From an archaeon (GTDB taxonomy: Archaea; EX4484-52; B79-G9), in contig JBDRKP010000029.1 of the NCBI GenBank assembly GCA_043813875.1, forward strand, positions 1-12,026: a DNA stretch of 12,026 bases, written 5' to 3'. Positions 1 to 12,026 of this stretch are shown piece by piece. The notes beneath the pieces are model-generated. The model saw nothing but the letters and a program-made list of their open reading frames with translations, did not search any database and was not told the origin of the DNA. The position numbers and the translations under genes are program-made. Positions within the stretch are counted from its first letter, which is position 1. Every line of letters begins with the position of its first letter.

Positions 1-666
1 ACTGTTCTCCTGTGCAGAAGGCATCGGTATCGTTATGTTCTGTGTGGTGTTGACGGGCCCAGAGGTAACATTAGTGACGTTATCATGTGTCACGTCATCA
101 TATGTGGTATTGTAAGTTGTGTTTGTTGCGTTCATTATGTCTGGATATGTTTGGTTAATCATTAACGTGTCGTTTGTCTGCGTGATGTTAAGAGAACAAT
201 CCTCGGTGGTTGTGTTATAACAGACGGAGATGTTGTCGTTAAATGTTAACGAGCCAGCGGTCTGATTATCATGTGTCTGGTTTTCGGTGTAATTATATGT
301 ATCATTGATCTGTGTCTGGTTTGATGTAATATTTTCTCTGATTGTGACATCTTCGGCTAATATGCGATTCCTGAAAAGAACTGTGGCTGACATGCAGGTG
401 CCATTCTCATGGGTCTCATTATAGGTCACAAAGTCGATCCCGGTGTCGTTATATATCACCAATATGCCGTCTTTGCATCTTAATGGCTGATACTCTTTGA
501 ACTGGATGAATACACTTGCATTGGGTTCAGAAACATTGACCTCAACAATTTTCATCCCCTCGAATTCCTGGGCGCCGTAGGTAACGTAACCTGTATAATT
601 CTTAAGGGAAAGCATGAGAATGAACATAGATACAACTAGCAAAATCCATACGGACCTTTTTACAAT
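1..666 (-). CDS. Secreted/surface glycoprotein, N-terminal part (3' end beyond left window edge); not in the supplied ORF track
   Basis: Manual translation gives a stop-free frame from 708 to position 1: (I)VKRSVWILLVVSMFILMLSLKNYTGYVTYGAQEF...NVTNVTSGPVNTTQNITIPMPSAQENS. It has a basic N-terminus plus hydrophobic helix (signal/anchor) and 24 N-x-S/T sequons. The start is uncertain: ATT at 666, TTG at 642 or ATG at 627. Confidence 0.88.
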   Translation of the reverse strand, partial: MVKRSVWILLVVSMFILMLSLKNYTGYVTYGAQEFEGMKIVEVNVSEPNASVFIQFKEYQPLRCKDGILVIYNDTGIDFVTYNETHENGTCMSATVLFRNRILAEDVTIRENITSNQTQINDTYNYTENQTHDNQTAGSLTFNDNISVCYNTTTEDCSLNITQTNDTLMINQTYPDIMNATNTTYNTTYDDVTHDNVTNVTSGPVNTTQNITIPMPSAQENS

Positions 667-983: not shown

Positions 984-2111
984 CTAATAATAAGTATAGG
1001 TCTTTTTCTCTTTGTACTGAGCCCCTTCATCAGCGGAATAATAGGGATTCAAATCACTTGATATCTGCCTGCTTTGCGGAATACGAGAAACCATATTAGC
1101 ATGAGGTGATTGCGGACGGGATACAGGGGCGTTATTGGATGGAGGTTCTTGTGGAGATACATCAATGAAGTTACCTAACAGCCATGCATATATTCCGGCC
1201 AGGTGTACAAAAAAGAGCGCACGCAGCAACTCCAGAGTAACGAACAAACTAAATACGATAAATAGAGAATAAATGGATGAGAATTGTTCAATCATCGGTT
1301 CCGGAAAAAGGCTAGAAGAAAGAGTCTCATTCATCTGTCTTTCAAACTCCTTGTCAATCCGGGCTTTTGTCTGTCTGTCAATATCATCCATATTATTTCT
1401 TATAGATGCAGCACACATCGTGCTTTCTTCTCTTGAAAGGTCTCGCATACCAGATTCCATTGAATTGAGAGTCGAGGTTTCCATGAATTCAACAAAGCCA
1501 TAGATCTGCTGCTTTTGACTGTCTAACATCGATACCCCAATCATTATAGGTAATACATCATCCATCGCATTACTCAAGTCCGATTCTAAACGAGCCTGCA
1601 TGTCTGTCGGGCCGAATATCAGTAAGATATATACTGCCACGATTATGGTAATGTTTATAACAAAAAATGCTTTCGATGTGCTGTTGGCGGTTATACCGTA
1701 GATGCTTATCTTTTTGTAGTGCTCTTTGTCCTGATAGGACATATAGTGGGCCAATAATACAGATAGAATGAATCCAAGTGAAATCAAAAATGCCTGCAAA
1801 GAGAGACCCAGATAATAAAATACAAGAGGTGTGACGAGTAATGGAGCAATAAGTATTGAGTAGTCAATATCTTTTATGGATAATGAATATAGCCCAACCA
1901 AGGCATAGGAGAATGGAAATAACAGGATGAATATCATGAAGAATAGCCAGTTTATGCCTAATCCTCCCGCAGATAACATTTTTGTGCTCAAACCGATCGG
2001 ATTGAGTATATGATCGCTTGTTATGCCTGAAAGTGAGAGAAAGATGAATGACAGGGCAGTTATCAATGCGAATGATATCAATGTCAAGTTTCGCGTTATG
2101 ATGGAGACCAC
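984..2111 (-). CDS. Hypothetical polytopic membrane protein (~6 TM helices, ~110-aa helical soluble loop, Pro/Ser/Gln-rich tail)
   Basis: 375-aa ORF with GTG start, overlapping the upstream gene by 16 nt and preceded by GGAAGGAGAG. Hydrophobic segments lie at about aa 9-29, 52-76, 85-103, 105-123, 148-166 and 280-315. Confidence 0.9.
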   Translation of the reverse strand: MVSIITRNLTLISFALITALSFIFLSLSGITSDHILNPIGLSTKMLSAGGLGINWLFFMIFILLFPFSYALVGLYSLSIKDIDYSILIAPLLVTPLVFYYLGLSLQAFLISLGFILSVLLAHYMSYQDKEHYKKISIYGITANSTSKAFFVINITIIVAVYILLIFGPTDMQARLESDLSNAMDDVLPIMIGVSMLDSQKQQIYGFVEFMETSTLNSMESGMRDLSREESTMCAASIRNNMDDIDRQTKARIDKEFERQMNETLSSSLFPEPMIEQFSSIYSLFIVFSLFVTLELLRALFFVHLAGIYAWLLGNFIDVSPQEPPSNNAPVSRPQSPHANMVSRIPQSRQISSDLNPYYSADEGAQYKEKKTYTYY

Positions 2112-5100
2112 CTCTCCTTCCGGTGATAATTATAAGTCCGGTTCTCTCTTAGAAAGCGTTTCAATTTTTCAATAAATTCGTCTATCCTTTGCCTAATTAT
2201 GCTTTTCGGTTTAGAGGGAGGGGTTGACTCTTTTTTCTCAAAATCATAATCTGTCGATTTTTCCGGCAACCACATATAGTAAAGAAGCGATGCTGCCAGT
2301 ATTATAATCATTATGATTATTGCAATAATAATATTTCGGCGTGTAATTTTTTGGCTATTCTGAATCTCTTCCTCTATCAATTTTTCCTGACCGAGCAACA
2401 TACCATTTATGTCGGATATTATCTCATCTGCGGAGGCATAATCCTCTTTTTCTATCGCAAGCCTGAGGTCATCGAGGAATTTTTCCAAGGTCTTTAGATT
2501 CCTGTCCAAGGAATTTATCCTTTCATCATCTGAAGGCAGAAGAGAATTCATGTCGTTGCGTAATTTAAGCAGCTTGTTTTTGAGTTCCGTGTAAGTTTCC
2601 TTTATTCTTTGTTTTTCTTTAAAACCAGGCAGGATATCAATTATGAATGACTCTGAGGTGTTTGTGCCGGCGGCTGATTCAAAGTAGATGGTGGCGCCGT
2701 ATGACCCAGGGGATGTGTCTGATGAGGAGATGTCGATGCGAATAGTATAGGTCTCGTTTTGTTCCAATTCTGATATTATTTCATCCAGAACCAGACTTAA
2801 ATCTATTTCTTTTGATTGCAATTTAAAGGTTATATTTTTCTCTATTGCCTCTCCGATGTTTTTTATTGTGATGTTTAAAAGCACGGAATTGTTTTGGTCC
2901 AAGACCAGTCTTTCGGGATAAGATATTATTTCCAAGCCACGCGTATTTTGAGATGATTCACCAGGCGCCGTGCTTTTTATGGCCACTTCCGATATATTCA
3001 GGATATTTATCGATTCTTCTTTATTCCAGCCGCGTATCCTGAAGCCATCTATTGTTTTTTCTGCACTAATCTCAAAGCGGTATAATCCTTTTTTTGTGAT
3101 GTTTTTGAGACCATCACAGAAGTATTCGCTTGTGGAGTTTACGGTTGCTGTATCTGTGTCATTGTAGTTGTTCGGGCCCCTTATGAAACAGGTGACGATT
3201 GCATCTTTTACAAGGGTGTCGTTGTAGGGGTCGATGCTATAATCGATGCGCCCTGAAACCGTCACGCTTGTGCTACGATTCGTGTCTATATACGCGTCCG
3301 AATGAATGTTTACGGTGACATTCAACCATTCGATATCAATCGTTGTTGTGTTCGAGACGGTCTTGGTAATATCCAATGGGGAGAGACCTGTGACAAAGAC
3401 AGTATAATAAACTGATGGTCTTTTTGGAACGTCGAAGTAAAATTGAGATTTCCCGTCCGGACCGGCATTTATATCAGCGGTAGCCACGATGTTGTTTGAA
3501 TCATCCCGTATCGCAGCGGTTATGTTTGCCATGTAGACCGGGTCTGTATTTGTGTTTGTGCCTACTTCGATTGATATGTTATCGCCTTCTGAATATACTT
3601 TGCCTGTGAAATTTGTGAGTATGCGAATCTGGTTTATGTAATTTGTTATATAAAATGTCCTGTTGTAGTCTGCTGTGTTGTTCATCCGGTCTTCTGCTGT
3701 GAGGTATAGTGTTGCAGGACCTGCTGTTGATCCGGTGAAGCTGTATTCTATGTCAATGTTTCCGTCGCTTTCTATCGTGTAGGGGGATGAGGATGAGATT
3801 GCGGTCGAGTTTACGGTCACTGATGCAGAGGGGATGCTCAAGTAGGAGCTCACCGTCGCGTTCACTGCGTCACCGGCCTGATTTCTTATATGGGCCACTA
3901 TCCTGAAACTGTCAGCTTTGAGAAAGTGCCAATCAATGTCATTCGGCTTTGCAGTGGATACGAGAGCTAAGTCAGTTATATAGAGCGATGACTGGTCTAT
4001 CTGAAGCCAGATTGTGTCATTGTATGCTGAGTTGCCGGCTATGTCGACTACGGTGAAATTCAGGTTGATGTTCTTGTTGCCTGATTCCGGAACTTTGAAG
4101 CTGCCAGTGCATTTTGAGTCCTTGTATGTGGGATTTTTTTCTACGTAGACTTCTGATACTTTACTCCCGCCAAAGTAGACTGTGCACAATTTTTTGCTTA
4201 AGCTGTTCATGAAACCGGATAGTGTGTCGGTTATGTTTAGATTGTAATTTACTGTGTAGTCTTTTTTTGTCCATGCGAGAGGGGATGGGCTGAGCACGGT
4301 TATCACGGGTTTTGTGTTGTCGGTGCTTGCGCTCATCGATACGGTCGGCTCTGCTGTTGAGGTTGCAGGGTTGGCGGTCATGTATGCCTGAAGCGTGAGG
4401 GTGCCGGTATAGGTTGTGTCAGGGTCATCGGGATAGTCGAGCCAAAGGAATAGCTGCTTCTGGTCGCCGCTGTCGGTTGTCGGCGCGTGCGCGGTTTCAA
4501 GGTCTTTATATGTCGTGTTCAGGTATATCTGGTTTGCGGGTGTATTGGAAAAGGATGCTCCAAGCGTGCCATCGCCGACTATTATCGAACTGCCGCCTGA
4601 AAAATCGGTGGATTTCGCTTTCCAGCTGTAGGGCGCATTCGCTATTAATGTGACCGGGATATAGGTCAGATCGTAGCCGGATGATTCCAGTTTTGCGAGA
4701 GGATGGTTGTCTGTGACTCTTTTGCCGGGCTCGAATTCTACGGAGGTTTTTGATACGGCAAGCTCCAGATGATAGGTATTGTTTAACGCCAGACTTGCTG
4801 TTTTTGTGCCTGTGCCGTTGTTTGCCCGCAGGTATATGAGCCAGCTTGATGTGTTTGTGTAGCGTGATGATTTGGATGGAGTGAATACGAATTTCGATAA
4901 GGATGATGTTGTGATGTAGGAATTCGGCTTATCTATGGACCAGCTCGTCTGTGTCGGGCGGATGTCGGCGAAAATCTCTTCGCCGGAATTGTTTTTCCAT
5001 TCGACCCAGGAGCACCTGTTTGCGCTTTCCATGGTGTCGGTGTTATAGCATGAGGATTCCTGCGTCTGTGATGAATCGTATATTGTTATGGATAGTTCTT

Positions 5101-5299
5101 TTAAGGATGCATCTGTGATGTTGAATGCCAGTGTCATCTCATCGGCCGGGGTCATCGTTGTTGTGGGGGTTGCTGTTGCTCCGTTGTCGTCGGAATAGAG
5201 CGCAACCGAGGTTATGTTGAATGCTAACGAGACCTGGGTGAAGCACAATATCGATAATATTGCCGTGAAGAATACGAGTGTCTTTTGTGTCTTTTGCAT
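2096..5299 (-). CDS. Large membrane-anchored cell-surface glycoprotein with multiple Ig-like/beta-sandwich domains, a helical stalk and a C-terminal TM helix
   Basis: 1067-aa ORF with signal peptide MQKTQKTLVFFTAILSILCFTQVSLA. Ig-type motifs include DNTKPVITVLSP...VVDIAGNS and the CARDB/NPCBM-associated-like LNITIKNIGE...PGSY. It has many N-x-S/T sites, a TM helix IIIAIIIMIIILAASLLYYMWL (2267-2332) and a 56-aa basic tail. Confidence 0.93.
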   Translation of the reverse strand: MQKTQKTLVFFTAILSILCFTQVSLAFNITSVALYSDDNGATATPTTTMTPADEMTLAFNITDASLKELSITIYDSSQTQESSCYNTDTMESANRCSWVEWKNNSGEEIFADIRPTQTSWSIDKPNSYITTSSLSKFVFTPSKSSRYTNTSSWLIYLRANNGTGTKTASLALNNTYHLELAVSKTSVEFEPGKRVTDNHPLAKLESSGYDLTYIPVTLIANAPYSWKAKSTDFSGGSSIIVGDGTLGASFSNTPANQIYLNTTYKDLETAHAPTTDSGDQKQLFLWLDYPDDPDTTYTGTLTLQAYMTANPATSTAEPTVSMSASTDNTKPVITVLSPSPLAWTKKDYTVNYNLNITDTLSGFMNSLSKKLCTVYFGGSKVSEVYVEKNPTYKDSKCTGSFKVPESGNKNINLNFTVVDIAGNSAYNDTIWLQIDQSSLYITDLALVSTAKPNDIDWHFLKADSFRIVAHIRNQAGDAVNATVSSYLSIPSASVTVNSTAISSSSPYTIESDGNIDIEYSFTGSTAGPATLYLTAEDRMNNTADYNRTFYITNYINQIRILTNFTGKVYSEGDNISIEVGTNTNTDPVYMANITAAIRDDSNNIVATADINAGPDGKSQFYFDVPKRPSVYYTVFVTGLSPLDITKTVSNTTTIDIEWLNVTVNIHSDAYIDTNRSTSVTVSGRIDYSIDPYNDTLVKDAIVTCFIRGPNNYNDTDTATVNSTSEYFCDGLKNITKKGLYRFEISAEKTIDGFRIRGWNKEESINILNISEVAIKSTAPGESSQNTRGLEIISYPERLVLDQNNSVLLNITIKNIGEAIEKNITFKLQSKEIDLSLVLDEIISELEQNETYTIRIDISSSDTSPGSYGATIYFESAAGTNTSESFIIDILPGFKEKQRIKETYTELKNKLLKLRNDMNSLLPSDDERINSLDRNLKTLEKFLDDLRLAIEKEDYASADEIISDINGMLLGQEKLIEEEIQNSQKITRRNIIIAIIIMIIILAASLLYYMWLPEKSTDYDFEKKESTPPSKPKSIIRQRIDEFIEKLKRFLRENRTYNYHRKERWSPS

Positions 5300-5357: not shown

Positions 5358-7928
5358 TTATCTGACATTTTCCAACAGGGCGTTGATTCTTTCGATCTTT
5401 TGCCGGGACGTGGTTTCGTTTCCGTCAAGAAGGTCCAGCTCTGCCATGCTCAGGTCAAGGGATGCATTCTCAAGAAGTGTCTCCTGATTGAATATGTCTT
5501 TTCCCGATCTTTTTTCTGCCTCCAATAGCGCCTCTTTTTCGTGATAAAGCGACTTCAGGCGCGATATCTCTTCAGTTAGGTTCGTGCCATGTATTTTATT
5601 TGCACCCATAGAATCTTTTTGGCTCTCTTTAATATCGGTCATTTCTTTTTTCTTTGGATTTTCAACCGGATTTGGAATCTGAACCGGTGATTGCGCTGAC
5701 AGTACGCATTCATCCTTTGGTATAGAAGAGGATTTTGATTTTGACTTTGACTTTATTTTGTTGAATAGCCCTTTTATTTTTTCCATATGTTTTTGAGGAA
5801 CTAAATCTGCCTCTGGCAGTTCTTTTGTGACCGGGTGGCATAGAGAGTCATTTCGAATTTCATCTGCCTTCATTACAATAGGATTACGCCAATCTAATTG
5901 AGGAGTAATATAGCCATGAACTTGTTTTTCCTGAATATTTTGATGATATTTTGTGCTGTCTTTTGTACGTGACTTTGAAGGCGTATTTTCTGTGAGTTCG
6001 TCATCTTTCTGCCTGATTGAATGTGTTTCTGGAAGATGGTCACACACGGATATTGATGGTGATGTTTCACGGTCAATTTCAGCAGGTTTTATTCGGTTAT
6101 TGTTTAAATCTTGCGTTAAGATTCTTTTTTCGGAGTGGTCTGAATCCGTTACATCTGTTGGAATAATATCTATACTGTCTTTCATGTATCTTATGTTATC
6201 TTCCATATTCACAATGTTGCTTGATATATCCATGTTTTTTTTCGATTCACAAAAATCCTGTTTGAAGATCCGCTCGTTTTTTTGCATTAGAGAGATAATA
6301 TCTGCTAAGACAGATATCTTATTTTTGAGTTCATCTATTTTTTTGTTTAATTCTTTTTCTGAGGACTCTAAGGAGGGTCGTGCAAGGTCGTCAATGCTTT
6401 CTTTCATGTATCGCCCGTTATCCTCAAGGAGGGTGATCGTGGATATTGACTCATTGATTTGGGTGCTTATTTCATTAATCTTTTCGCTGAGTTCCTGATG
6501 TTGCTGGGATGCGTATTGCTCTTTTTGTTCCAGTTCTTTGATGCCTTTTTCAAGGCCATGACGAAGATCTTTTTCTTTGAGCCCTGTTGTTGATATTTGG
6601 GCCATTTTCGTCTCAAGATATTTTTTTAGGGTAAGAAGCTCTTGTTTTGTGTTCTTATCGTTTTTTTGCATTATAGAGAGCATATCTGCTAATTTAGATA
6701 ATCCGGCTTCAAATTGTATGTTTTTTTCGGTTATTGTGGCAACAGCTGAGTCAAGTGATTCTTTGGAAGTGGATTGTACCAAGCCATCAATAATATCTTG
6801 CATGCGTTTAATGTTGTTTTGCAGATTATCTGTTGTGTCTGAAATGCTCTTGATGCTTTTGTTAAGGCCATCAATGTCTTTTAAGGATTCTTTTCTTAGT
6901 TCGTCGCGAATATCCAATCTCATTTTTTCAAGATTGTCTTTTGTCATTAGGTCCAGATTCTCTCTTGACATCTTGTCTACAAGGGTGCTTACAATATCTT
7001 TCAATATCTTTATTCTTGTATCGAGCTCAGCGGCTTTAGTCTCCTGGTCCTCTCTTATCTTTGAAAATGAGTCTTTTGACATCAATGAATCGGTCTTTAC
7101 CTCCAGCGTATCGTTTGATCTTATCAGATCCTTTATCAACTCATTCATGTCGTTGACTTCTTTTTTGTATTTCTGGAATTCTGACAAGCGATTGTCCAAC
7201 TCGGAAAATATCTTCTCTGTCTTGGCTGCCATGCGCGAGGTGTATTTTTCACTGTCTTTTACCTGTTCTATCTCTGCCTTTATCTCTTTTGAGACATCCA
7301 GCAGATTCTCGAAACTTTTGAACCTGTCAAGGAGTTTTGTGAGTTTCACCTGCGTTTTTTCGAGCCGGTCTATCTTGCTTTTCTCTAGCTCTAATTGAGC
7401 CTGGACTTTCATGACTTCGAGCGCATTCTCCTCTATTTCTTTGTGTATCTTTTCCGGCTTCATGTGAGCGGTTGATTCTTTTATATTCTCAAATTCTGTC
7501 TCGATGCCGCTGAAGGTGTCTTCTCTTGAGAATATCATGGATCTCAACTCGCCTATCTTTTCGGCAAGATCGGCTATCCGGTCATTTGTTTCTGATTTCG
7601 ATGATTCTATCATCTCAAATTTGCCTTCCATTTTTTCGACTTTTAGTAAAGTGTCATTTAATTTTTTTTCGATATATTGCACATTGGACTGATTCATATC
7701 GGTACTTGATTCCCGCGCATCTTTGTCTTTTTTTAATTTTTGAAGAAATCCGAACAGCTTCTTATTTTGTTCTTTTTTCTCTAATGCCTCGAATTCTTCG
7801 GTGGTTATTTTTGGCTCTAATGTGTCTTCTTCTTTTATCTTTGATGTTGTGGAACTATCTGAGGTGGGTTTGTCTTCAATCTTAAGTTGGGGAGATAATC
7901 CGTTGTTCTTTTCGATGTCGTTTGGCAT
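5358..7928 (-). CDS. Long cytoplasmic coiled-coil protein (Lys/Glu-rich) with internal duplications, a disordered region and a C-terminal helical bundle
   Basis: The track gives 858 aa from GTG 7934. ATG 7928 is preferred because AGGTG (7938-7934) lies 5 nt upstream. Heptad-type K/E/L/I pattern spans about aa 85-590. No signal peptide, TM segment or Walker motif. Confidence 0.92.
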   Translation of the reverse strand: MPNDIEKNNGLSPQLKIEDKPTSDSSTTSKIKEEDTLEPKITTEEFEALEKKEQNKKLFGFLQKLKKDKDARESSTDMNQSNVQYIEKKLNDTLLKVEKMEGKFEMIESSKSETNDRIADLAEKIGELRSMIFSREDTFSGIETEFENIKESTAHMKPEKIHKEIEENALEVMKVQAQLELEKSKIDRLEKTQVKLTKLLDRFKSFENLLDVSKEIKAEIEQVKDSEKYTSRMAAKTEKIFSELDNRLSEFQKYKKEVNDMNELIKDLIRSNDTLEVKTDSLMSKDSFSKIREDQETKAAELDTRIKILKDIVSTLVDKMSRENLDLMTKDNLEKMRLDIRDELRKESLKDIDGLNKSIKSISDTTDNLQNNIKRMQDIIDGLVQSTSKESLDSAVATITEKNIQFEAGLSKLADMLSIMQKNDKNTKQELLTLKKYLETKMAQISTTGLKEKDLRHGLEKGIKELEQKEQYASQQHQELSEKINEISTQINESISTITLLEDNGRYMKESIDDLARPSLESSEKELNKKIDELKNKISVLADIISLMQKNERIFKQDFCESKKNMDISSNIVNMEDNIRYMKDSIDIIPTDVTDSDHSEKRILTQDLNNNRIKPAEIDRETSPSISVCDHLPETHSIRQKDDELTENTPSKSRTKDSTKYHQNIQEKQVHGYITPQLDWRNPIVMKADEIRNDSLCHPVTKELPEADLVPQKHMEKIKGLFNKIKSKSKSKSSSIPKDECVLSAQSPVQIPNPVENPKKKEMTDIKESQKDSMGANKIHGTNLTEEISRLKSLYHEKEALLEAEKRSGKDIFNQETLLENASLDLSMAELDLLDGNETTSRQKIERINALLENVR
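6274..6700. repeat. Intragenic direct repeat (6274-6316 vs 6658-6700, 37/43 nt identical) in the coiled-coil gene
   Basis: TCGTTTTTTTGCATTAgAGAGAtaATATCTGCTAAgacAGATA vs TCGTTTTTTTGCATTAtAGAGAgcATATCTGCTAAtttAGATA, encoding SVLADIISLMQKNE and SKLADMLSIMQKND. Confidence 0.85.
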
Positions 7929-7933
7929 GTTCA

Positions 7934-7938
7934 CACCT
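7934..7938 (-). promoter_or_regulatory. Shine-Dalgarno-like site AGGTG
   Basis: Minus strand reads AGGTG-TGAAC-ATG(7928), matching part of the archaeal GGAGGTGA consensus. Confidence 0.65.
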
Positions 7939-7963
7939 ATAGCAAATTATATTTGGTGATTTG

Positions 7964-7976
7964 TATATATATATAT
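7964..7976 (-). promoter_or_regulatory. (TA)6 tract, putative TATA box of the coiled-coil gene
   Basis: ATATATATATATA in the short intergenic gap. A 23-nt spacing would put the transcription start near 7940, just upstream of the SD. Confidence 0.55.
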
Positions 7977-7991
7977 GATAATTATATCTGG

Positions 7992-10900
7992 CTAGTCGCG
8001 AAGTATCTTATGGCTTAATAATGACTCGATATATATCTCGGCCATCTTGAACTGACCCTGTTTCAGTTTGGTTTTTGCAAGCCTGATTTCAAGTTCGAAG
8101 TCCATGATGTTCACTTTCCTTGTTTTGAGGTCTTCTATTTTCTTTTCTATTATATCCAGTTTCTCTGCGAAATTCTTGTATATGTTTAATTCTTCTTCTG
8201 TTATCTTGTGCGGCGAGTGCATTGTCGGCCTGAACTGGACGAACCAGGGTTTTCCGTCGTTGTATCTTGGGTTCTGGATCATACCCACGCCTACACCTTG
8301 TCTTGATATCTTTTCTGAATAGATGACACCGTATTTTTCTTTGACTTTCGCTATATCTGACATCGATTTTGTGTTCAGCTGGATTTCTGTCAATATGTTG
8401 CCTTGTATCGCTTCTTTGAAGTCGGAGTATACCTGGGAGCACATTATCAGGCCGATACCCCATTTTCGGAACTCTCTGCATGCTTTTTCGAGTGATATGT
8501 ATCCGCCAGAGCCGCCGTATTTTTCAAGGAGACGGTGGACCTCGTCGAATACGATGATCATCTTCAATGTTGTTGATTCTTCCCATGATACCTGGAATAT
8601 CGTGTCGATTATTGACTGGACGGCTTTATCATATTCGCCGGGTTTGAGCTTGTTTAGTGTGAATACGGTGATTTCGCCGGGGTTCATGTATTTTTTGAAG
8701 TCTATTTTTACGTTGGGGTCGGTCACTTCGAATATCATGCCGGTGAACGGGCGCGCGTCTTCGGGGCGCATGCCGAATTCTTCGTAGTATCTTAAAAGGT
8801 TGTTGTCTTTGCAGGGTCTTACGAAGCCGGTCCATTGTGCAGTAGGGTCAAAGACGACTACGGGGATCTTCTGTTTTAAGGCTTCTTCTACGAATATTGA
8901 TGCGGCGACGCTTTTGCCTGCGCCGGTGGAGCCGGATGTCAGTATGTGGGTTGTCAGGTTGTCCGGGTCGTAGTATGCGGTCCTGTTTGTCTCTGCTATC
9001 TTTCCCAAGGTGTATGCTTTTTGGCCGCGGGGCAGTTTGCTGTAGTCTATCGGGAACACGTATCGCGCTTTTGACATGATCCATTTTCTGTATCTTTGGT
9101 AGCCATAATAGCCAAGAACCGAGAGGATGACCAGTGTGAGGAATAACAAGAGCGCCTGCCCACGGGTTGTTGCCCAGAAGGATTCAACGACTTCGAATGT
9201 GTCTGTGGCTGTGACTTTTTTGGAACTGTAGTCTGCCGAAACGTCTATGAAGTACTGACCTGTCAGTATAGTGTCATCTAATTCTTTCAGGTCTATGGAT
9301 TTTCTTAAATTCGTGCTTTCTTCCAGATGTATTGTCTCTTCGATTGTTTTTAGCACTAAGTCTCTTTTGGCGTCTTTGATGCTGTATTTCAGGGTGACGT
9401 TGAATTCTTTTATCAGCCCCAGATCGTAGAGCATCACATTGAATCTCAGGGTGTCAGTGGGTGTGACTTTTTTTGTCAATATCTCGACAACCATATCAAG
9501 GGATGTAAGGACTTTTTCGCTTTTGTCTGATACTCTTATTATGACAGGAATTATCTGTTCTGAATTGTCTGATTTGATCCTGATGCTGCCAGAGTAGGCA
9601 TCAGGTATTGTTTCTTTTTTTGCATGTATGTTTATCTTTACGGTCCTGTTTGATTGCGCTTCCATTATAAATTCATCCGGTATCAGTTCCATGTAGTCTA
9701 AGATCTCACCTGTCAATCCAAGACTAATGGATATTGACTTGTTGTTGTTGTTCCGTAATATCATTTCATGTGTCTGGTTTTCGCCTGGAGCAATCACTAT
9801 GTTTATGAAATCAAAATCGGTAGTATATTCAAATTCTGCTGAACTGCAATCAAGCGGGCAATTGTCGTTGTTTTCTGTAGGTTCGCAGATACCGTTGCCG
9901 CATGTATGATAGGAACAGTCCAGAGGACAGTTTAGTTCGTTTTCACCAAATTCGCATATATCGTTGCCGCATATTGCCTTTAGAACGGATGTGGAGCCGC
10001 TGCTGCTGCCAGATGTGGTGGCTGTGCCGCCTGAATCGCCGGGCGGAGAGGAACCGCAGATGTTGCCGCCACACCATTTTGCGAGGGCGTAGGCGCTGTT
10101 ATGGGTCGTGGTGAATGTGAATCGGTCATTATCTAAGTCGTTCGGCTTGAGAGATGAGTTGAATTCAGTAAATTCGCTTGCACATACCAAGGAGGTAAAG
10201 TTCCAGTTAGTGCAATAATATAGCCTGATATAGTTTTCGTCAGTAGATCCCCATGATCCCAGGGCATTTGTATAGTCTAGCTCGATGGTGGCGTTGTCAT
10301 AACTCATGTTCGGAGTCTCTAGTACGAATGCCATCAGAATATCTGTTGCTGTATTGGGCAAATATATGTTGCTTGCGTGTGTCTCGGGGCTGCTGTTGGC
10401 TATGAGGTGAATCCTGATTGGGCCTGCCAGTGATGCCGGGTCGGGCTGGCCGGTCTTGTTAATCGCAGATCTTGTGACGTTGAAGTTGTTGAAGCGAATC
10501 GTCTGACCTAATGCGGCCATCTTTATATCGTAAGTGCGCCTGTGGACGGTCCAGTTGTAATAACCCGCTGCATCTGTGCTGAACCGATGGAACATCCAGT
10601 CTGTGCCCTGCTTGTATAGCTCAAAGTCTGCTGTGATGACGTTATTTGATGCATCTTTTAATGTGTCTGTAAATACGATATTACGATAAACGTCGAACCA
10701 TACTGTTTTTTCGGTTGTATGATTTGTGATGCTGTCGTTTGCGTAGATTGTAATCCTGTAATCGCCGGGAAGGTTCGGATTTGAATATGTGCTGTTCCAG
10801 AGATCGCTTACTGGCGTCTTGCGGGAGAGGGTTATGTTTGCGCTAGTGCCGAGCGGGTCGGTGATAATGACCCAGACGTTCTTGACATCGACATTGTCGG

Positions 10901-12026
10901 TGGCGTTTATCTCTAAGATGATTGTGCTAAAATTGTCATCAAATAGCAGGTTTGCCTCGTTTTCGGGTTTCAACGCAATCGAATTAATCCATACCTGATT
11001 TATGGACGGACCGGTGATGTCCCGGTATATCACAAGATTATCTCCTGTTGCCGTGTATGATATCTCGAATCCCTCCGGTGTCCTGTAAGCAACGGTTATA
11101 CCTACGGTGTTGTTTTGTACGTTATTGGGTATCTCGGGAGCTGTGCAGTTTATAAACCACGTGTCTGTTGATGGATTGAAAACGGTATCATCAATTGTGC
11201 AGTTCTGCCCTGAGATCTTTATGCCAAATGTCGTATTCACGGTATCGTTGAGAGGGTTTCCGTCGTAGGTCACATTCAATGTGAAGTTCAGCATATCTCC
11301 TGCAATGATATCTGTCGATGGATATGACGTGTTAGGGGATATTATCTCGACGTTCAATGCGCTGATCGTAAATGTTATGGTCCTGTTTATCCATTGCGGG
11401 ACAGCGTTGCTGTCCAGATTCTGTATCGTGATGTTGTATATGTAGGTACCTTTGTTGCCTAACGTTGCATTTGATATGTTATAGGCAATATCGATGTTTC
11501 CAAATGATAATAGAGCGGGAAGCGTGAAACTTGATTCTGTTGAGCTGAGTTGGTATACTGTTGAATTATAGATGTATGTGAAATTCAGGAAATATGTGCC
11601 GTTGAAATTGATGATGCTTATGTTTATGGCCATGCTCTGATTCTTAAGGTTGGTTATGTTGATTAGGTCGTCAAAGGAGCCGATGCTATCCTTTCCGCCA
11701 AGTCCAACGGTTTTTGATATCTCTTCAGAGGGTGTCAACTGCCAGTCCTGGTCTATGACTGTGATGTTTATTTTTATTTTGTCCGTACAATGCTCATAAC
11801 TGTATATGCAGGCTGAACCGGTGTTGTTTGCTACAATGTATGTCCAATAGCTTCTGCCAAGAAGACTTGCGTTACGAGGCACGGCCACGGTTACTACAAT
11901 TGTCTTGTTACCATAGCGAGCTATGTCAAAGGATTCGTTTGAGTAGGTTATTGTCCAGTTCTTTAGCAACTGATAATCTCCGCCATCGAGATTGAACCGG
12001 ATGTCTTTGAGCATGGTGTTGCCGTA
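7992..12026 (-). CDS. Giant surface glycoprotein fused via a single TM helix to a C-terminal HerA/FtsK/VirB4-superfamily (DUF87-like) P-loop ATPase; 5'-truncated by the window edge
   Basis: The frame stays open beyond ATG 12014 to the edge (TAC GGC AAC ACC ATG) and there is no signal peptide at that Met, so the protein is at least 1344 aa. About 950 aa of sequon-rich beta-sandwich sequence precede the TM ALLLFLTLVILSVLGYYGY (9099-9155), followed by QRYRKW. Walker A GSTGAGKS, Walker B IIVFDEVH and REFRKWGIGLIMCSQ are present. Confidence 0.93.
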   Translation of the reverse strand, partial: YGNTMLKDIRFNLDGGDYQLLKNWTITYSNESFDIARYGNKTIVVTVAVPRNASLLGRSYWTYIVANNTGSACIYSYEHCTDKIKINITVIDQDWQLTPSEEISKTVGLGGKDSIGSFDDLINITNLKNQSMAINISIINFNGTYFLNFTYIYNSTVYQLSSTESSFTLPALLSFGNIDIAYNISNATLGNKGTYIYNITIQNLDSNAVPQWINRTITFTISALNVEIISPNTSYPSTDIIAGDMLNFTLNVTYDGNPLNDTVNTTFGIKISGQNCTIDDTVFNPSTDTWFINCTAPEIPNNVQNNTVGITVAYRTPEGFEISYTATGDNLVIYRDITGPSINQVWINSIALKPENEANLLFDDNFSTIILEINATDNVDVKNVWVIITDPLGTSANITLSRKTPVSDLWNSTYSNPNLPGDYRITIYANDSITNHTTEKTVWFDVYRNIVFTDTLKDASNNVITADFELYKQGTDWMFHRFSTDAAGYYNWTVHRRTYDIKMAALGQTIRFNNFNVTRSAINKTGQPDPASLAGPIRIHLIANSSPETHASNIYLPNTATDILMAFVLETPNMSYDNATIELDYTNALGSWGSTDENYIRLYYCTNWNFTSLVCASEFTEFNSSLKPNDLDNDRFTFTTTHNSAYALAKWCGGNICGSSPPGDSGGTATTSGSSSGSTSVLKAICGNDICEFGENELNCPLDCSYHTCGNGICEPTENNDNCPLDCSSAEFEYTTDFDFINIVIAPGENQTHEMILRNNNNKSISISLGLTGEILDYMELIPDEFIMEAQSNRTVKINIHAKKETIPDAYSGSIRIKSDNSEQIIPVIIRVSDKSEKVLTSLDMVVEILTKKVTPTDTLRFNVMLYDLGLIKEFNVTLKYSIKDAKRDLVLKTIEETIHLEESTNLRKSIDLKELDDTILTGQYFIDVSADYSSKKVTATDTFEVVESFWATTRGQALLLFLTLVILSVLGYYGYQRYRKWIMSKARYVFPIDYSKLPRGQKAYTLGKIAETNRTAYYDPDNLTTHILTSGSTGAGKSVAASIFVEEALKQKIPVVVFDPTAQWTGFVRPCKDNNLLRYYEEFGMRPEDARPFTGMIFEVTDPNVKIDFKKYMNPGEITVFTLNKLKPGEYDKAVQSIIDTIFQVSWEESTTLKMIIVFDEVHRLLEKYGGSGGYISLEKACREFRKWGIGLIMCSQVYSDFKEAIQGNILTEIQLNTKSMSDIAKVKEKYGVIYSEKISRQGVGVGMIQNPRYNDGKPWFVQFRPTMHSPHKITEEELNIYKNFAEKLDIIEKKIEDLKTRKVNIMDFELEIRLAKTKLKQGQFKMAEIYIESLLSHKILRD
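7995..9098 (-). other. Cytoplasmic HerA-like ATPase domain (368 aa after the TM helix)
   Basis: THILTSGSTGAGKS (Walker A 8910-8933), VVVFDPTAQW (HerA/VirB4-type hhhhDP strand), IIVFDEVH (8535-8558), RKWG arginine motif (8457-8468) and SQ sensor (8433-8438). Confidence 0.9.
9846..9971 (-). repeat. Two tandem Cys-rich repeats CGNxxCExxENxxNCPLDC
   Basis: CGNDICEFGENELNCPLDC (9915-9971) and CGNGICEPTENNDNCPLDC (9846-9902) with a 23-aa period, following a Gly/Ser/Thr linker. Confidence 0.9.

Follow-up and report, generated by a model that had tools for sequence, protein, structure and literature searches.

DPANN archaea depend on contact with a host cell, and the way in which they attach to it and exchange material with it is an open question. 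The subject of the current study is a DNA stretch of 12,026 nt from a DPANN archaeon (contig JBDRKP010000029.1 of the GenBank assembly GCA_043813875.1; henceforth "the window") and within it the truncated gene of a giant surface protein, which combines a long extracellular region with a single transmembrane (TM) helix and a cytoplasmic ATPase. The passages on the SPEARE of Nanohaloarchaeota in Hamm et al. (2019; PMC6642349) describe very long, mostly extracytoplasmic proteins with a TM helix near the C-terminus, whose intracellular portion is the most conserved one and was read as type III restriction-like; SPEARE-like sequences are also reported there for Woesearchaeota, Aenigmarchaeota, Micrarchaeota and Altiarchaeales. 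The corresponding passages in Reva et al. (2023; PMC10266531) report giant membrane-anchored proteins composed of a signal peptide, an Ig-like domain, two PQQ-type propellers, tandem Ig-like domains, a TM helix, a VirB4/TraG-like ATPase and a coiled coil, with an ATPase paralogue directly downstream of the giant gene. The same passages propose a type IV secretion-like "straw" and dispute the protease, laminin-G and toxin-like domains of the founder SPEAREs.

The architecture found in the window is hence already in print as SPEARE or giant membrane-anchored proteins, and the novelty that was implied by our first-pass annotation, which had been made from the letters of the window, has to be withdrawn. 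The same annotation had considered that the fusion might belong to a characterised system; this came true for the description of the architecture but not for its function, which is not characterised in the passages cited above, and the later literature adds none in its statements on the SPEARE family. New here are the placement of the ATPase next to HerA, the gradient of constraint that culminates in the ATPase core, the poor conservation of the TM helix, the collinearity of the ectodomain over its whole length and a near-universal coiled-coil partner.

A giant protein probably encoded on two contigs

The window corresponds to the entire contig C29 of the source genome G000 (1.64 Mb, 90 contigs, 91.5% complete), and its minus strand carries all large open reading frames (ORFs). 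The frame of the giant gene (7992-12026, minus strand) is open over 1344 residues, ends with a stop codon at 7992-7994 and is truncated by the contig end; its true start lies further upstream, off the contig, and not at the ATG at 12014. This fragment very probably represents the C-terminal 1,344 residues (the last 44%) of a SPEARE-type protein of about 3,060 residues. It is collinear with the independent 3,081-residue protein P0125, with 935 of 1344 residues being identical (70%; P0125 residues 1738-3076). The parts of the fragment are as follows (positions in the window, residues of the fragment):

9162..12026, minus strand: extracellular region, residues 1-955 (about 1738-2690 of the full protein), with 42 predicted N-glycosylation sequons
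9093..9161, minus strand: single TM helix, residues ~956-978, located by a hydropathy scan
8157..9092, minus strand: core of the HerA-clade P-loop ATPase, residues ~979-1290, with Walker A at 8910-8933 and Walker B at 8541-8558
7995..8156, minus strand: C-terminal helical tail, residues ~1291-1344, with the conserved motif LAK.KLK.G.F.MAEIYI.SL

The genome G000 holds one copy of the giant gene. A tblastn search of P0125 against G000 placed the equivalent of its residues 25-1544 on contig C75 (28075-32652), where the match runs off the contig end. The respective ORF (28081-32654) is 3'-open and encodes 1,524 residues, i.e. the N-terminal half of the giant protein, with a hydrophobic signal anchor at its start, 86 sequons and matches to the beta-propeller families PF23743 and PF25292. 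About 190 residues between the ends of C75 and C29 are missing from the bin; the two ends do not overlap in sequence, and no third contig of G000 fills the gap. We infer the join of both contigs from their collinearity with P0125. The search beyond the contig end, which had been recommended by the first-pass annotation, accordingly recovered the N-terminal 1,524 residues including the signal anchor and left the stretch of about 190 residues outstanding. The full protein in all likelihood consists of a signal anchor, a beta-propeller, an N-glycosylated chain of beta-sandwiches, a cysteine-rich module, the TM helix, the ATPase and the helical tail, in this order.

The ATPase and its placement next to HerA

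The cytoplasmic domain contains a Walker A motif (GSTGAGKS, residue 1032) and a Walker B motif (IIVFDE, residue 1157). In the HMMER alignment with HerA 4d2i, VFDEVH corresponds to EEAH, REFRKWG to REGRKFG and SQ to SQR, which we take from the HerA literature to be the Walker B motif, the arginine finger and the sensor, respectively. The residues K1038, D1161, E1162, R1184, R1187 and Q1198 are invariant in our alignment A1, which comprises 35 diverse homologues of the ATPase and has a mean column identity of 65%. The domain possesses Walker A, Walker B with the catalytic glutamate, the arginine finger, the sensor glutamine and the RecA-like fold of the FtsK/HerA superfamily, and the complete set of motifs that had been recognized by eye in the window is thereby corroborated across the family.

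The profile searches proposed at the outset placed the domain nearest to HerA. The domain matches DUF87 (Pfam) with an E-value of 1.1e-9, and the A1 profile retrieved from the PDB the Sulfolobus HerA 4d2i with 6.1e-13 and other HerAs with 2e-10 to 5e-7, followed at a large distance by FtsK (2.7e-3) and the coupling proteins (0.015-0.12). Apart from DUF87, every Pfam or NCBIfam match (HerA equivalogs, CedD, CedB, TraC, TraD and VirB4) stays below its curated cut-off. The HerA equivalog of NCBIfam scores 25.3 bits with the domain of the window (cut-off 800) and matches 35 of 35 members of A1 at E <= 0.001 (best 5.9e-14), and TrwB_AAD_bind (Pfam) reaches 17.5 bits (cut-off 20.5). Because all matches other than DUF87 are below the cut-offs, the ATPase is on sequence grounds best classified as a distinct clade of the FtsK/HerA superfamily, with HerA and not VirB4/TraG as its nearest relative. 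Homologues also match ResIII (PF04851) and the TrwB/FtsK models; the former matches explain the restriction-enzyme reading by Hamm et al. An assignment to CedD, the best NCBIfam name with matches in 35 of 35 members, was considered and rejected; the match of the window domain comprises only about 40 residues around Walker A.

The AlphaFold2 (AF2) model of the 392 residues of the cytoplasmic part (pLDDT 88.4, pTM 0.87) displays the TM helix, a short linker, the RecA-like core and four helices (H325-350, H356-370, H374-385 and H388-391 of the model). In a Foldseek search its top match is HerA 4d2i (9.3e-11); HerA, Sir2-HerA, HerA-DUF4297 and HerA-NurA come first, while DndH, the packaging ATPase of STIV2, TcpA and FtsK rank behind them. 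According to the AF2 model and the profile alignment the ATPase has no HAS-barrel, as the TM helix leads straight into the DUF87 core. The tail is conserved, and its residues K368, G372, F374 and Y380 (A1 numbering) are invariant.

A comparison with close relatives (3,053-3,085 aa) and distant ones (P0132, P0142 and P0013) documents a steep gradient of conservation along the protein. The identity amounts to 86-88% (close) and 69-72% (distant) for the ATPase core, to 69-76% and 43-54% for the C-terminal tail, to 56-70% and 21-36% for the ectodomain segments, and to 46-57% and 31-40% for the TM helix with its flank. Conservation is highest in the ATP motor, which is under the strongest selection, with a constraint that far exceeds that of the surface arm.

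Ectodomain, membrane anchor and topology

The extracellular region starts with a chain of beta-sandwiches, continues with a Gly/Ser linker that contains two cysteine modules of the type CGNGICE..NCP.DC (~651-735) and ends with two membrane-proximal Ig-like domains. Sequons (N-x-S/T) are concentrated in its distal part, with 24 in residues 1-310, 14 in 311-650 and 4 in 651-955, whereas only 2 are located in residues 980-1344. The 42 sequons of residues 1-955 compare with 17.9 +/- 3.4 expected from 1000 composition-preserving shuffles, the 2 sequons of the cytoplasmic part with 1.5 +/- 1.1. In the AF2 model, the 952 extracellular residues adopt an all-beta fold (pLDDT 78.7). The model comprises about eight beta-sandwiches and a Gly/Ser stretch that is disordered, and its Cys-rich module at 660-731 is of low confidence. 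Foldseek matched it with low TM-scores to chains of multiple Ig or MG domains, including ciliary central-pair ASH-domain proteins, complement/alpha-2-macroglobulin, contactin and mastigoneme. The term "Ig-like", which had been assigned to the ectodomain beforehand, is supported by these models as a fold class only.

Proteins of 2,200-3,100 residues from other lineages can be aligned collinearly with the ectodomain and share many near-invariant Cys, Trp and Gly positions with it; the collinear alignment with P0125 has 60-67% identity. Judged from these alignments, the ectodomain does not represent a random repeat array.

The sole hydrophobic segment of the fragment peaks at residue 958 (ALLLFLTLVILSVLGYYGY; Kyte-Doolittle 1.99). 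Behind it comes QRYRKWIMSKAR with five K/R, and a single R is present in the 10 residues preceding the helix. The positive-inside flank and the sequon split of 42 versus 2 place the ectodomain outside and the ATPase inside the cell. The sequon-rich ectodomain of more than 950 residues (952, with 24 sequons in the first 310 and 2 behind the membrane) and the one TM helix with its positive flank (residues 956-978), both of which had been noted in the first-pass annotation, are confirmed. A hydrophobic segment occupies the equivalent position in 309 of 322 homologues (see below). Conservation is lowest in the TM helix, whose consensus in alignment A1 is "x" and which looks like a plain anchor.

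A widespread family and a genuine fusion

A search with residues 940-1344 yielded 554 matches of 739-2352 aa and 154 matches of 2353-5000 aa, and an exhaustive search of cluster representatives resulted in 356 clusters (50% identity) at E <= 1e-30. We fetched 322 homologues whose ATPase domain is near-complete; in 304 of them it is preceded by 250 residues or more (maximum 7,483) and in 15 by a short ectodomain of 50-250 residues, proportions that are biased towards long forms by the length restriction of two of the three source searches. The combination of a long N-terminal region, a TM segment and the ATPase is shared by hundreds of homologues from DPANN archaea. Their source labels comprise Aenigmatarchaeota, Micrarchaeota/Anstonellales, Woesearchaeota, Pacearchaeota, Nanoarchaeota, Nanohaloarchaea and Altarchaeum. 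Within the phylum of the window, the family was detected in 28 of 42 genomes and in eight of the ten high-quality ones (E <= 1e-30), with 1-3 copies per genome and a longest open frame of 12,145 residues. Compared with proteins labelled Nanohaloarchaea or Nanohalobium, the ATPase reaches identities of 51-63%. Its identity to the ATPase of a 7,878-residue protein is 55%, and the cluster of this protein contains a member labelled Nanohaloarchaea; for other proteins labelled Nanohaloarchaea the values are 54-63%.

The split of the gene over two contigs, with about 190 residues absent from the bin, could be taken as a sign of a chimeric assembly, and the single-polypeptide fusion might also reflect a missed stop between ectodomain and ATPase. 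No stop occurs within the frame between the two parts, and the same junction is present in hundreds of independent assemblies. Because this junction recurs so often and P0125 is collinear, the probability of a chimera is practically negligible, and the fusion of ectodomain, TM helix and ATPase is, by all sequence comparisons, genuine and not an assembly artefact. The earlier report of a single polypeptide thereby stands. No RNA data set was listed as containing this sequence. Logan contigs from four DNA runs (151-404 nt, low depth) are too short to test the assembly, as none of them spans the giant gene. One 242-nt piece covers 8931-9172 without a difference, the best-matching run possibly being the sample of origin itself, and one piece of 275 nt extends 80 nt beyond the end of the window.

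Some matches carry labels from outside the DPANN archaea. The pair of a giant and a coiled-coil gene is located on a 1.9-Mb contig of a record of Candidatus Hydrothermarchaeum profundi (locus L063), which is not labelled DPANN; other matches, labelled Methanosarcinales, Heimdallarchaeota, Methanobacteriota or Thermococcus, are found on short contigs of metagenome-assembled genomes. These labels could reflect either a real spread or mis-binning.

A conserved coiled-coil partner

The gene downstream of the ATPase end of the giant gene encodes a coiled-coil protein (c1). We compared the window with 77 related loci from species-representative genomes, whose ORFs were called and clustered together (78 loci in total). 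Homologues of c1 are present downstream of the ATPase gene in 69 of the 78 loci, i.e. adjacent on the same strand in 61, separated by one ORF in seven and on the opposite strand in one; six of the nine loci without c1 end less than 500 nt from the ATPase gene. The remaining large ORFs of the window are listed together with c1:

5358..7934, minus strand: partner gene c1, soluble coiled-coil protein of 858 aa, core ~90-400 with the motifs EEIGELRS and PEKI
2096..5299, minus strand: type-I membrane glycoprotein of 1067 aa with signal peptide, 31 sequons and a C-terminal TM helix
984..2111, minus strand: protein of 375 aa with ~6 TM segments; at its start the gene shares 16 nt with the end of the glycoprotein gene before it
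1-642, minus strand: 3'-open ORF of 214 aa with 24 sequons (11.2 per 100 residues, by far the densest in the locus)

The protein c1, whose family often carries an N-terminal ITxEEF motif, is encoded by a single gene in G000 and has no TM segment in our scans. It matches no specific family: the PDB profile search retrieved generic coiled coils only (E >= 5.8e-4), the Pfam matches are scattered over coiled-coil families, in at most 11 of 28 members, and the Atlas matches are unnamed DPANN clusters. The passages on SPEARE in the literature do not mention this partner gene, and the passages of 10.1101/2023.02.24.529834 treat further coiled-coil proteins of DPANN archaea, located in type IV pilus loci. 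The Atlas record begins the c1 protein at the ATG at 7928. The spacer of 57 nt between the stop of the giant gene and c1 (7935-7991) is AT-rich and contains a TATATATATATA run about 35 nt ahead of this ATG, which could be an archaeal promoter of c1 itself.

The other neighbours of the giant gene are far less conserved. The 1067-aa glycoprotein and the 375-aa protein are lineage-specific: homologues of the former are confined to L006, L007 and L027, the closest loci, and those of the latter likewise to the three closest loci (weak TIGR02587 match of 7.8e-4, far below the cut-off). The sequon-dense ORF of 214 aa has a homologue only in L006. An upstream family of type-I glycoproteins (c2), represented here by a 1,091-aa protein on C75, is present in 18 of the 78 loci, and a small TM protein (c5) in seven. 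No similarity was found between the glycoprotein P0003 and the upstream 1091-aa glycoprotein.

Genomes of the same genus (L038 and L039; G003:C28 and G007:C25) have a paralogue of 551 aa between the giant gene and the coiled-coil gene. It comprises a short ectodomain, a TM helix and the same ATPase, is absent from G000 and may represent the second downstream ATPase of Reva et al. Two further DUF87 ATPases are encoded in G000, neither of which adjoins the giant gene, namely, a soluble, canonical HerA-like one of 652 aa (G000:C75:18158-20116, plus strand; PF01935, 3.1e-38) and one of 723 aa with weak TraG/TrwB matches (G000:C25, L003:772-2943, minus strand). About 11 kb upstream of the start of the giant gene, contig C75 harbors a run of small ORFs (G000:C75:11686-17070, minus strand) with a short charged stretch followed by a hydrophobic helix, e.g. 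MRDERKGQMAIEY, which look like archaeal pilin-type proteins with class III signal peptides.

A proposed membrane-apposed motor at the contact site

The working model that we favour, still tentatively, is a ring motor apposed to the membrane at the site of cell contact. It builds on the observed architecture and topology, the intact and highly constrained active site, the replacement of the HAS-barrel by a membrane anchor, the conserved tail and the conserved neighbour. By homology to the hexameric HerA and FtsK, the ATPase would form a HerA-like ring, whose entry face would adjoin the membrane from the inside, in the place of the HAS-barrel ring of HerA. This ring would gather several ectodomain arms at one spot of the cell surface, and these arms may bind a partner cell or a polymer. 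At the contact site the ring would then use ATP for one of two tasks, the movement of a polymer (nucleic acid or protein) or a pull on the coiled-coil partner, which may serve as scaffold or adaptor in the cytoplasm. We infer the oligomeric state, the substrate, the transport direction and the partner binding, and a ring that lies against the membrane would fit work along an axis perpendicular to it. The bundling of several arms by a ring, an idea of the first-pass annotation, seems reasonable by this analogy. Its conduit, if made by the protein alone, is not supported, because the TM helices are not conserved and no channel partner is conserved either. Taken as a whole, i.e. the identity of the protein together with its likely working, we hold our explanation with good confidence.

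Several points weigh against it. Six single TM helices of unconserved sequence are, by our own reasoning, unlikely to line a channel that is wide enough for double-stranded DNA, and no polytopic membrane protein is conserved beside the giant gene in the 78 loci; ORFs with at least four TM segments are present in only 25 of them, and the largest such cluster comprises four loci. Three loci (L008, L016 and L072) have room downstream of the ATPase gene and yet lack c1. The membership in the SPEARE family, which is highly probable, is deduced from the architecture and from indirect links of ATPase identity to proteins labelled Nanohaloarchaea rather than from an alignment with a named SPEARE. The domains behind the original acronym (laminin-G, serine protease, toxin-like) were not detected by Pfam in either half of the protein, and the place of the second ATPase downstream of the giant gene in Reva et al. 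is taken here by the coiled-coil gene, the paralogue being absent. Finally, the literature examined describes, in its passages on the family, no experiment on any member.

Among the rival explanations, the closest one is a motorised or regulated adhesin, in which the ring acts on the coiled-coil partner mechanically or by signalling, for the assembly, clustering, retraction or release of the arms, and transports nothing. It can be likened to gliding mycoplasmas, where giant surface "leg" proteins are driven by internal ATPases. The soluble partner in 69 of 78 loci, which is single-copy in G000 like the giant gene, the conserved helical tail on the ATPase, the unconserved TM helix and the missing conservation of a channel partner would all suit such a device. 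All solved relatives that we found are nucleic-acid translocases or helicases, however, partner binding is putative, and we regard the adhesin as rather unlikely. A bolder version of the transport idea is a self-contained trans-envelope machine, composed of the giant protein and the coiled-coil protein and present mainly in ultrasmall archaea. Its HerA-derived ring, directly below the membrane, would gather six glycosylated arms into a contact organelle and, at the expense of ATP, haul in nucleic acid of the host or some other polymer, which would supply nucleotides to cells unable to make them; the coiled-coil protein would be a cytoplasmic track or adaptor. We consider this version unlikely; if true, it would establish a device for uptake between cells that forms a class of its own, with no relation to type IV secretion or Ced.

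The type IV secretion-like straw, in which the Ig-like domains bind the host and a VirB4/TraG-like ATPase exports effectors, has been published for the same architecture (Reva et al. 2023, in the passages of PMC10266531 cited above). The weak matches to the models TrwB_AAD_bind, AAA_10, TraC, TraD and VirB4 and the conjugation coupling protein TcpA at rank 41 of the Foldseek matches are in line with it. The match to HerA (6.1e-13) is nevertheless far stronger than those to the coupling proteins (0.015-0.12), and every Pfam or NCBIfam match to the type IV secretion system (T4SS) remains under its curated cut-off. The 78 neighbourhoods contain neither a further T4SS component nor a conserved polytopic protein, and the VirB4-like paralogue downstream is absent in the window. 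The straw is thus decidedly unlikely for this locus. The abundance of large secreted glycoproteins in the locus (up1091, P0003 and ORF5) and the recurrence of c2, a further family of type-I glycoproteins, in 18 of 78 loci might point to a biogenesis device, in which the ATPase would assist the export, folding or membrane insertion of its own giant ectodomain or of the glycoproteins encoded nearby. This is very improbable given that the N-terminal signal anchor suggests ordinary Sec export, that the ATPase would be available only once the ectodomain is translated and that the members with short ectodomains (15 of 322) keep the ATPase. Still less credit can be given to an anti-virus defence HerA comparable to Sir2-HerA or DUF4297-HerA. 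PADLOC models for HerA and mad8 match the domain (1.6e-12 to 1e-3), and defence HerA complexes are among the best structural matches, but both reflect the common HerA core. The defence HerAs known so far are soluble proteins with an N-terminal barrel, which is absent here, and the Pfam and NCBIfam searches of the window revealed no Sir2, DUF4297 or nuclease effector.

The SPEARE-type family represents one of the few large, near-universal and lineage-typical surface systems of DPANN archaea, to which the window adds one more, contig-truncated member of a described kind. The HerA-like motor, the plain-anchor TM helix and the near-constant coiled-coil partner provide experimental handles for nanohaloarchaeal co-cultures.

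Comparison with known systems

FtsK/SpoIIIE, TrwB/VirD4 and CedB/CedD of the Ced DNA importer of Sulfolobales share with the giant protein a membrane anchor N-terminal to a cytoplasmic ring-ATPase domain, but they lack a large ectodomain and have 2-4 or more TM helices. HerA, with the structure 4d2i from S. solfataricus as its reference, has the RecA-like core, the Walker A and B motifs, the arginine motif of the REGRKFG type and the SQ sensor in common with our ATPase. HerA sensu stricto additionally has the HAS-barrel and NurA; here the barrel is absent, NurA was not found in the window by the Pfam and NCBIfam searches, and a membrane anchor with a giant ectodomain is present instead. The closest described proteins are the SPEARE. 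The protein of the window has a mostly extracytoplasmic length of Ig-like and propeller domains, a single TM helix on the C-terminal side, a conserved cytoplasmic P-loop and a helical C-terminal tip. With about 3,060 residues it is smaller than the published members (5,998-9,409 residues), and its ATPase is nearest to HerA, in contrast to the VirB4/TraG affiliation proposed by Reva et al. and the restriction enzyme of Hamm et al. The order of the parts, the cytoplasmic part as the most conserved one and the spread over the DPANN lineages are the same in both.

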